DNA of 64,000 bases. It comes from a virus. The position numbers and the translations under genes were made by a program. The notes beneath the pieces are model-generated. The model was not told the DNA's origin. It worked only from the letters and a program-made list of their open reading frames with translations, and ran no database searches. Below are positions 62,417 through 64,000 of the stretch, piece after piece. Location of the stretch: IMG/VR virus record IMGVR_UViG_3300045988_084596, positions 57,930 through 121,929 of that record. One strand, written 5' to 3'. Positions within the stretch are counted from its first letter, which is position 1. Each line of letters starts with the position of its first letter.

Positions 62417-62491
62417 ATGAGTTTATTAGATATTAAACCACATGAGGTATCAAGAGATTTAAGAGGTTATTCAGTATTTTTCTATGGTGAT
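62417..62491 (+). CDS. 5' exon-like fragment of Sak4-like ATPase gene (25 codons then stop)
   Basis: Strong RBS AAGGAG with ATG 62417. Encodes MSLLDIKPHEVSRDLRGYSVFFYGD then TAA. ...VFFYG is the start of a Walker A region completed by PPKSGKTT at 63230. Confidence 0.4.
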
Positions 62492-63229
62492 TAATCGTTA
62501 GCTAATATGGGTCACCTAACTCAGTGAACTATTGCTTAATAGGTGTAAAATTAATTGGTTAAACTTTTTCAATTTTCCCTTTCCTATTTTCAATAATAGT
62601 AGAAAAGAAAAAGGAGGGCTATAAAATGCCAAAAGGGAAAATTTCAAATCCGGGATGGATAACTTGCACTTGTCAGTATTGTGGAAAACAATTTCAATAT
62701 TACAGAGATACTTCTGTAATTAGAAAAAGTTGTTATGAATGTATACCAGATGGTAGAAGTAATGATGCAGCTTTAATACGAAGGTTAATAAAGAAGAAAG
62801 CTGTTGAATATAAAGGAGATAAATGTGAATGTTGTGGAAAATCATATCCTTTATCAGTATATGATTTTCACCATAAAGATCCTAATTTAAAAGATTTCTC
62901 TTTAGGGGATAAGACATCTACCGTCAAATGGGATAAAGTAAAAATAGAAATAGATAAGTGTATATTAGTATGTGCAAATTGCCATCGTCAAATCCATAGT
63001 GGAGATATTAAGTTAAATCAAGACCAGGAGGAAATGCCTGCTAATAATTTTGCTAACAGGGAAACAGCTAACGGCAATCCTGTGCCAAGCCTCAAACAAG
63101 AGGAAGGTTAAGAGACTATCGAAAACCTATAATAGAGTGAGTAGAGTAGGATGGAGATAAGCACCATTCGAAGCGCTGAGATCGTACTTTATAAGTATGA
63201 TAAGATATAGTCCGGGGTTATCCGCTCAC
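62489..63229 (+). mobile_element. candidate group I intron (~740 nt) with HNH endonuclease ORF inside Sak4-like gene; borders approximate
   Basis: Separates ...FFYG from PPKSGKTT... in one reading frame. Contains free-standing HNH ORF 62626-63111. Last exon-1 nucleotide is T. The catalytic RNA core was not modelled. Confidence 0.4.
62626..63111 (+). CDS. HNH homing endonuclease (161 aa)
   Basis: AAAAGGAGGG RBS. CECCGKSYPLSVYDFHHKDP ... CANCHRQIH HNH motif. Confidence 0.7.
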   Translation: MPKGKISNPGWITCTCQYCGKQFQYYRDTSVIRKSCYECIPDGRSNDAALIRRLIKKKAVEYKGDKCECCGKSYPLSVYDFHHKDPNLKDFSLGDKTSTVKWDKVKIEIDKCILVCANCHRQIHSGDIKLNQDQEEMPANNFANRETANGNPVPSLKQEEG

Positions 63230-64000
63230 CCGCCAAAGAGTGGTAAAACCACTATCGCAAGTAAGTTTCCAAAAGCACTTTTGCTTGCTTTTGAGAAAGG
63301 CTATAATGCATTACCTGGAGTATACGCCTAGCCAATTAATAGCTGGGGTGAATTTAAGAAACTGTTTAGTGAATTAAAAACTCCAGAAGTACAAGAAAAA
63401 TTCCAAACTATTGTAATTGATACCGCAGACATTGCGTACGGATACTGCGAAAAGTTTATTTGTAGCAGAGAAGGCGTTGATACTATTGGTGATATTCCTT
63501 ATGGAAAAGGGTATGCGCTTGTAAGTTCAGAGTTTGACGAAGCGATTCGTAAAATTCTACAACTTAACTATGGTCTTATTCTTATTTCTCACGCAAAAAC
63601 AAAGACAGAAAAGAACGCAAAAGGAGAAGACATTGCCTCATAGATTGTTCCTACTCTGGATAATAGAGGAAGATTAATTTGTGAGAGAACTTGTGATATT
63701 ATCGGATATTCTCGTTCTGTTACTAATGAATCTGGAGGAACAGAAACAAGACTCTTTATGCGTGGAACTCCGCAGTATGTTGCCGGTTCTCGGTTCAAGT
63801 ATGTACCAGAGTCTATCGAATTTACATATGATAATCTTGTAAATGCAATTTCTAACGCCATTGATAGACAAGCAGAAGAAACTGGTGGACAGTATATTAC
63901 AAACGAGGCAACTCAAGTTGTAACAGAAGATGTTACTTATGATTTTGATTATCTAATGACAAGATTTAATGATTTAGTTGGAAATCTTATGTCAGAAAAT
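63197..64000 (+). CDS. Sak4-like RecA-family ATPase (AAA_24), 3' partial at window end; 2 in-frame TAG; probably exon 2 of a split gene
   Basis: Frame contains HPPKSGKTTIASKF (Walker A) and LILISHAK (Walker B-like). No RBS before ATG 63197. The ORF runs past position 64000. Confidence 0.5.

Follow-up and report, generated by a model that had tools for sequence, protein, structure and literature searches.

A candidate mobile group I intron with an HNH endonuclease gene in the Walker A motif of a Sak4-like gene from a TAG-recoded phage

The split gene and its boundaries

The stretch of viral DNA analysed here, referred to as the window, covers 64,000 nucleotides (nt) of the IMG/VR record IMGVR_UViG_3300045988_084596 (positions 57,930 to 121,929 of that record) and ends in a gene for a Sak4-like ATPase, two parts of which are separated by an insert that carries an HNH endonuclease gene. 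An earlier note, made from the sequence alone, had read this arrangement as a phage recombination gene split within its Walker A motif by a group I intron with a homing endonuclease. The parts of this gene and of its insert described below, and the tRNA-CUA gene, lie on the plus strand of the window.

The first part is an open reading frame (ORF) of 25 codons at 62417-62491, encoding MSLLDIKPHEVSRDLRGYSVFFYGD and closed by a TAA at 62492-62494, and the excellent ribosome-binding site (RBS) ascribed to it by the earlier note can be read from the sequence as GAAGGAG at 62400-62406, 10 nt 5' of the ATG. Downstream, the frame from 63230 reads PPKSGKTTIASKF... (PPKSGKTT...) and, as had been observed, it resumes without an RBS, there being neither an RBS nor a start codon before PKSGKTT. 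The earlier note had put this resumption about 740 nt on; the frame itself stands, but its first codon, CCG at 63230-63232, is intronic, and the frame holds two in-frame TAG codons that had gone unmentioned. By alignment to the uninterrupted allele L168, exon 2 starts at 63233 with PKSGKTTIASKF... and runs past the end of the window at 64000.

Once fused, the two parts match the Pfam family AAA_24 (PF13479) at 9e-40 over profile positions 2-195 of 195, a comparison that had been suggested as a check, and the PHROG family 124, 'Sak4-like ssDNA annealing protein', at 3e-49. The spliced product contains both a Walker A (GDPKSGKT) and a Walker B motif (TIVIDTAD, codons 84-91). A search of 5.8 billion proteins returned 5,944 relatives of the fused protein, the best of which is 97% identical across the whole query, has 326 residues and reads, uninterrupted, MSLLDIKPHEVSRDLRGYSVFFYGDPKSGKTT (YGDPKSGKTT). 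In uninterrupted homologues of 324-326 residues, at most 97% identical, the 25 N-terminal residues run straight into PKSGKTT; the homologues do not start at PPKSGKTT behind a different upstream gene. All 111 full-length homologues carry the motif G-x-PK[ST]GKTT; position x holds E, T, Q, D, S, A, L or I, but in no case P. Because both family profiles are matched and both parts occur together in uninterrupted homologues, the match of the split gene is not due to chance, and we take the host gene to be a Sak4-like, AAA_24-type RecA-fold ATPase with a putative annealing activity. Its nearest cultured relatives, at 52% identity, are uninterrupted genes annotated as Sak4-like in Enterococcus phages, which infect Firmicutes. 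Of 252 matching records from cultured phages, the best 40 show no split gene, and a full-text literature search returned no paper on a group I intron in a Sak4-like gene.

The boundaries of the insert follow from three independent lines, namely an empty-site allele, the rules of group I introns and the homologues. The empty-site allele, L168 (IMG/VR 3300045988_073130), is near-isogenic, with 99.7% identity to window positions 59984-62491; its alignment to the window ends at 62491 and restarts at 63233, and the corresponding positions in L168 are adjacent (2509|2510). Across the site L168 reads GGG GAT|CCA AAG and the related sequence L001 reads GGG GAC CCT AAG, both encoding G-D-P-K, and the intron-less L168-type sequence is ...TATGGGGATCCAAAGTCT...; L167 and L001-L004 are likewise uninterrupted at this site. 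The insert that is absent from all of these, whose flanks adjoin there, occupies 62492-63232 (741 nt), opens with the in-frame stop UAA and closes with a terminal G. With regard to the group I rules, an internal guide sequence, UGG-GUCACC, can be read at 62508-62516, and its GUCACC (62511-62516) forms six pairs with GGUGAU, the last six bases of exon 1 (62486-62491), to give a P1 helix with a U.G wobble between U62491 and G62511 at the 5' splice site; this P1 is recovered in the minimum-energy fold. A P10 is possible between UGG 62508-62510 and CCA 63233-63235, the first three bases of exon 2. The last intron base, set by L168, is G63232, and joining the two parts in frame yields YGDPKSGKTT, in agreement with the homologues. 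Since the empty-site allele, the U.G and terminal-G rules and the homologues agree, we place the predicted junction at GAT|CCA, that is at D25|P26 inside the Walker A motif. The ligated junction inferred from this is ...TATGGTGAT|CCAAAGAGT... (expected in ligated reads: ...TTCTATGGTGAT to CCAAAGAGTGGT...).

Exon 2 is not open in the standard code, and its reading needs TAG to stand for glutamine at codons 58 (63329-63331) and 162 (63641-63643). The first of these is CAG in L001 and TAG in L002-L004, at a position where glutamine is conserved in homologues, and the second is CAA in L001-L004. The window also encodes a tRNA with the anticodon CUA, an amber suppressor, at 26731-26806 (ARAGORN and Rfam), whose acceptor stem resembles, by alignment, that of the phage's own tRNA-Gln(UUG). 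Under genetic code 15 the ORF coverage of the window rises from 57% to 75%, and TAG occurs in 19 of 52 plus-strand ORFs, with up to 10 in one ORF, making up 15% of the glutamine-type codons. As TAG aligns with glutamine codons in relatives and the tRNA-CUA is encoded, the phage is, by these sequence criteria, TAG-to-Gln recoded (code 15). The tRNA-CUA gene belongs to a plus-strand array at 7378-27837 that comprises 29 tRNA genes.

The ribozyme core and its endonuclease gene

The structure of the insert was derived by comparison with relatives, for which two motif scans of IMG/VR gave at least 120 and at least 40 contigs whose cores are related. P1 leads straight into J1/3 (UAA), with no P2 in between, and then into the 5' part of the core (62520-62556), which comprises the 5' strand of P3 (CUCAGUG, 62520-62526), a small hairpin (62529-62542) and GUAAAA (62545-62550). 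The latter pairs with UUUUGC (63048-63053, P3.2') to form the second of two small hairpins between P3 and J3/4, and it is this second hairpin that holds the ORF in its loop. The 3' part of the core, from P3.2' to the terminal G (63048-63232), is supported by a covariance model of the family, Rfam, covariation and homology to the recA intron of phage 0305phi8-36; it continues with J3/4 (UAA), P4 (63057-61/63078-82), P5, P6 (63085-93/63100-07), P7 (GACUA 63114-18/UAGUC 63208-12), P7.1, P7.2 (63149-54/63164-69), the 3' strand of P3 (63174-80), P8 (63181-89/63193-201), J8/7 (AAGAUA), a short P9 (63214-16/63229-31) and G63232. P3 thereby pairs CUCAGUG with CGCUGAG (63174-63180) and forms a pseudoknot with P7. 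We had also sought the 3' strand of P3 adjoining P7 (UCGAAAA), where there is no complement; the relatives place P7.1 and P7.2 between P7 and P3'. The presence of P7.1 and P7.2 presumably marks an intron of the IA type, typical of phages.

This structure was tested on an alignment of 17 sequences, with the ORF loop of the window removed. In it, 86.9% of cells are paired; sliding the 3' partners by 1-3 columns lowers this to 35-44%, and the observed values are not attained in any of 500 shuffles. Five of the seven pairs of P3, which is 99% paired, show compensatory changes, P4 and P6 are 95-100% paired, again with compensatory changes, P7.2 and P8 covary too, and P7 is invariant. RNAalifold found the same helices in 10 relatives taken without the window, with compensatory changes at 20 of 39 pairs, and a covariance model built from 10 relatives, also without the window (R1), matches 63052-63213 over its full length at 118.9 bits (E 4e-32), its sole match in the window. 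Folded without its ORF, the intron shows P1, P3, P4, P6, P7.2, P8 and P9 in the minimum-energy structure. Together, the R1 match, the covariation and the homology to the 0305phi8-36 intron bear out the earlier proposal of a group I intron with a homing endonuclease in a phage recombination gene, and support reading the insert as a group I ribozyme for which self-splicing is predicted. No further introns of this type were found in the window by searches that included model R1.

The gene that the earlier note had placed in the intervening DNA is indeed found there, at 62626-63111, with 161 codons, its own RBS (AAGGAGG) and a TAA stop at 63109-63111. Its product matches PHROG 2255, 'HNH endonuclease', at 2e-26 and eight further PHROG families, seven of which are annotated as HNH endonuclease, and scores 19.1 bits against the Pfam HNH family (PF01844), just below the cutoff of 21.4; the motifs DFHH...CANCH and pairs of CxxC can be read from its sequence. 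With tblastn it retrieves 366 phage records, mostly annotated as HNH or homing endonuclease, in which the matches stop by residue ~125-141. The last ~20 codons overlap the ribozyme core (P3.2', J3/4 and P4-P6), up to the UAA in J6/7, and because the tblastn matches end where they do, we regard this C-terminus as a simple read-through into the core. The gene contains no TAG among its seven glutamine codons; an avoidance of TAG was considered and dropped, as 0 of 7 against a background of 15% is uninformative (P = 0.32). A scan of 62200-64000 for promoters and terminators gave no terminator call and promoter-like sites no more often than in shuffled sequences, and we propose no internal promoter for the HNH gene. 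By eye only, a GGGAG/CUCCC hairpin followed by a T-run can be seen at 62365-62386, 3' of the upstream gene. Part of the HNH gene (62803-62997) shows 71-73% DNA identity to unannotated regions in 15 of 15 records of Prevotella Lak megaphages, which are TAG-recoded phages as well.

Mobility, relatives and other features of the window

The same intron, with the same HNH gene at the same site, occurs in two further IMG/VR records, 3300045988_093451 (L138/L169) and 3300029726_000071 (L143/L187), which together with the window form the intron-plus alleles, as opposed to the intron-minus alleles L168, L167 and L001-L004. Across the three carriers the intron is far better conserved than its surroundings. 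The 5' part of the intron with the HNH gene is 100% identical to the window in both L143 and L138, and the 3' part is 98.3% and 99.1% identical, respectively, as compared to 86.7% and 92.0% for exon 1 and 72.6% and 84.7% for the upstream YorF gene; exon 2 is 72.4% identical in L143 and not covered in L138. The two substitutions in L143, G63150A and C63174U, both keep pairing, and the last nine bases of exon 1, TATGGTGAT, are the same in all three carriers, with differing neighbouring bases. Such a contrast between an intron conserved at 98-100% and flanks at 72-92% is, on the alignments, what we take as the signature of a recently spreading homing element. The intron-minus alleles point the same way: the window is 99.7% identical to L168 for 2.5 kb upstream of the site and 87% downstream, and it shows the reverse pattern with L167, 83% upstream and 94% downstream. 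As the identity to L168 and L167 shifts there, a recombination breakpoint would coincide with the intron site, and the drop in identity to L168 fits recombination at the insertion point.

The nearest characterised relative of the intron, annotated as a 'mobile intron', lies in the recA/UvsX-like gene ORF241 of Bacillus thuringiensis phage 0305phi8-36 (PMC3239194; NC_009760). It belongs to the same ribozyme subfamily, with 76% identity over 139 nt of the P6-P8 core, and has the same layout of P3, AAC, hairpin, GUGU, hairpin, UAA and P4, the same junction GGTGAT|CCAAA and the same 9-nt guide, UGGGUCACC (positions 1539-1544, 2405-2412 and 2659-2663 of L005, the 0305phi8-36 locus, compared with window positions 62486-62516 and 63233-63237). 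Its ORF likewise lies upstream of the catalytic core, and its host gene likewise encodes a recombination protein of the RecA superfamily. The two differ in the insertion site, which is the L2-loop region of RecA (FGD|P) in 0305phi8-36 and the Walker A motif of Sak4 (YGD|P) in the window, in the endonuclease, which is Vsr-like (EDxHD) with NUMOD motifs in the former and HNH in the latter, and in the place of the ORF, between the strands of P1 in the former and in the P3-P4 hairpin loop in the latter. The 0305phi8-36 endonuclease, I-Bth0305I, cleaves the intron-less recA allele beside the insertion site (PMC3239194). A further recA intron, in chromosomes of the Bacillus cereus/anthracis group, is mostly free of an endonuclease gene and is linked to the window through 0305phi8-36 only, whose recA intron it is reported to match; splicing in vitro and in vivo is reported as well, in vivo for B. 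anthracis (PMC2504315), which lends the intron lineage experimental support. Over the whole core, identity to the 0305phi8-36 intron is ~66%, within the 59-70% spread of other subfamily members, and that intron is thus not the closest relative of the core.

The ribozyme has most of its close relatives in genes of the recA type, at YG(N/D)|PETT. The introns of the window and of 0305phi8-36 lie in two RecA-superfamily genes, at positions that are not homologous, and have in common an 11-nt target, GGTGAT|CCAAA, and its guide; this sharing may reflect either ectopic transposition or convergence. We can only tentatively suggest that the ribozyme reached the Sak4-like gene by ectopic, guide-directed transposition from a recA-type gene. 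Since the endonuclease genes of the two introns are unrelated and occupy different loops, the movement of the RNA core, such as by reverse splicing, seems not to have depended on an endonuclease, with the HNH gene joining it only later.

Other inserts in the Sak4-like family were located by tblastn on the IMG/VR relatives. They are found after codon 28 (L208-L211, ~1.14 kb), after codon 29 (L128, intron 2, with an HNH_3/NUMOD1 gene), after codon 85, inside the Walker B motif TIVIDTAD (L211 and L215, ~1.1 kb), near codon 91 (L214, ~1.1 kb) and near codon 118 (L216, ~1.1 kb), with L211 holding two inserts. The codon-85 insert of L215 scores 72.9 bits in Rfam, above the gathering score, and 54 bits with R1, and that of L211 scores 45 bits with R1, which identifies the codon-85 inserts as predicted group I introns. 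In L128 (2643-4010), and also in L129, two intervening sequences surround a 12-nt mini-exon, CCAAAATCAGGT (PKSG). Intron 2 of L128 has a good P1 with a U.G pair and a terminal G; intron 1 lies at the site used in the window, and its P1 (GGAGAG/CUCUCC) would, anomalously, put G-C, not U.G, at the splice site. An Rfam scan of both L128 introns gave no match. L127, also considered as a carrier, turned out to be merely a GTG-start miscall. On these comparisons, the Walker A and Walker B codons of the Sak4-like family would constitute a multi-site intron hotspot with at least five sites. Two introns of the same subfamily were also seen ~320 nt apart in one gene of L160 (IMG/VR 3300008513_000006, minus strand, ~1450-1810), apparently separated by an exon of only ~10 nt (UGUCGGAGGU).

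Classical phage introns of the IA type with endonuclease genes include those in td, nrdB and sunY of T4 and those in the DNA polymerase genes of SPO1 and SP82, which carry the HNH enzyme I-HmuI. The intron described here resembles them in its conserved DNA-metabolism host gene, in the peripheral-loop ORF with its own RBS, in the stop codon with which, or close to which, the intron begins and in its insertion at highly conserved codons; it differs in its host gene and in that its ORF reads into the P3-P6 core, and the likeness is one of architecture. A nicking HNH endonuclease, I-PfoP3I, is carried by the DNA polymerase intron of Pf-WMP3 (PMC3428280). In TGA-recoded 'Agate' phages, a group I intron endonuclease has been described in an early gene (Borges et al., bioRxiv 10.1101/2021.08.26.457843). 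In both cases a gut phage with a recoded stop codon has a group I intron within a gene of the early or replication type. The codes differ, TGA to Trp in Agate phages and TAG to Gln in the window, as does the distribution of recoded stops: in Agate the endonuclease gene is enriched in them, whereas in the window it is exon 2 that carries TAG and the HNH gene that has none, a difference that is not significant for seven codons.

Several further features of the window were recorded. Inside the tRNA array, a tmRNA gene lies at 14520-14850 (70.9 bits, full length), and a 120-nt Rfam tRNA match at 17636-17755 (50.9 bits), not called by ARAGORN, has recognisable acceptor, D and T arms, with ~45 nt inserted in the region of the anticodon, and possibly represents a tRNA gene that has been interrupted. 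Upstream of thyX, an ORF of 303 codons at 59160-60071, with eight in-frame TAG codons and a C-terminal GIY...YIG motif, is syntenic with a GIY-YIG gene (PF01541) in L002-L004 and probably encodes a free-standing homing-type endonuclease, heavily recoded unlike the intron's HNH gene. Two paralogous ORFs at 5910-6923 and 46689-47435, with 10 and 5 in-frame TAG codons, respectively, share repeated DLTGQ(R/K)FG...W.CKCDCGN modules and a common C-terminal domain.

Predicted splicing, alternatives and implications

We consider it about 90% probable that the Sak4-like gene is interrupted between codons 25 and 26 by a mobile group I intron, 741 nt long and of phage IA type, that carries an HNH gene, with splicing predicted from sequence and structure. 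In the pre-mRNA, the exon-1 bases GGUGAU would pair with the guide GUCACC to form P1, presenting the U.G wobble at the splice site, where a free guanosine would attack after U62491. The freed 3'-OH of exon 1 would then attack after G63232, with P10 (CCA/UGG) aligning exon 2, and the ligated mRNA would encode a single protein of ~326 residues with its P-loop restored. On unspliced RNA, a ribosome would halt at the UAA that opens the intron and thereby be kept out of the folding ribozyme, and keeping ribosomes out of the ribozyme matters for the td intron of T4. Translation of exon 2 would need the phage tRNA-CUA, two of its glutamine positions being written TAG. The HNH protein would be translated from its own RBS, its gene lying in the peripheral P3-P4 hairpin loop, and would most likely cut or nick alleles that lack the intron, near GGNGAY|CCAAAG, when phages infect a cell together; repair templated by the copy with the intron would then insert the intron along with a few flanking bases (homing).

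Some observations weigh against this reading. The group I model of Rfam (Intron_gpI, RF00028), whose scan had been suggested as a check, does match the insert (62979-63224), albeit with 26.9 bits and thus below the gathering score of 50 (E 1.3e-4 in a 1-kb search); a scan of the whole window at the gathering threshold did not find the intron, and the sub-threshold match of a permissive scan is confined to the 3' core. This model is known to overlook many phage introns. Besides, the window's P5 and P7.1 are a poor fit to the family model R1, P10 has only 3 bp, and, folded at minimum energy without its ORF, the intron does not significantly exceed shuffled sequences in stability (z = -1.6). The sequences behind the covariation had been recruited by motifs from the window itself, and the motif columns carry no independent weight. 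Finally, the gene is cut by the end of the window, with ~45 codons missing as judged from P0001, and the intactness of its frame is visible only to position 64000.

The low Rfam score and the short or atypical P5 and P7.1 would also suit a decaying relic that no longer splices, in which case the Sak4-like gene of this phage would be a pseudogene. However, every core helix is paired in the window, the two exons are conserved and intact in the three diverged intron-carrying genomes, and the only two substitutions between the intron copies preserve base pairs; the nine exon bases needed for P1 are moreover identical in the three carriers despite their differing neighbours. In view of this, we regard a relic as improbable. 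Still harder to credit is an arrangement without RNA splicing, be it a free-standing HNH gene between a 25-codon micro-ORF and a truncated, independently translated ATPase, or an intein or translational bypass. The HNH gene does have its own RBS and stop codon, and gene callers have placed exon-2-only proteins in public data (e.g., P0065 and P0052). Yet nothing resembling an RBS or start codon precedes PKSGKTT, such a protein would lack the first glycine of the P-loop and the N-terminus conserved in all full-length homologues, and the insert folds as a group I ribozyme; an intein is ruled out by stops in all frames.

As for where the mobile group I intron is spliced, the earlier note had joined GGT (to 62488) to CCG (from 63230), giving YG|PPKSGKTT, a junction that is off by 3 nt at both ends, as all 25 codons belong to exon 1 and exon 2 starts from CCA at 63233. 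Its product would have the same length and also fit GxxxxGKT, and exon 1 would still end in T, a detail of the earlier note that holds for the junction preferred here too, where exon 1 ends in U62491. Against it, the intron would end in C instead of G, U62488 would pair with A62514 without a U.G wobble, the empty-site alleles L168 and L001 read G-D-P-K, proline occupies position x in 0 of 111 homologues, and the published junction of 0305phi8-36 is GGTGAT|CCAAA; we give it almost no credence. Position 63224, the end of the Rfam match, was also tried as the terminal G and rejected, as it gives YGAHPPKSG and breaks the P-loop.

The element detected in the earlier note is a mobile group I intron of an ordinary sort, though cleanly documented, and it leaves the understanding of how such elements work unchanged. 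As regards annotation, gene callers split the gene three ways, into a stub of 25 residues, the HNH gene and an ATPase truncated at its N-terminus, and the standard code cuts exon 2 twice more, whereas recognising the intron and the recoding would restore one intact recombination protein. The finding adds a Sak4-like single-strand-annealing ATPase to the phage DNA-metabolism genes predicted to have been invaded by group I introns, and the near-isogenic intron-plus and intron-minus pairs, together with a target and guide in common with the characterised recA intron, could serve the study of how group I introns jump between genes.

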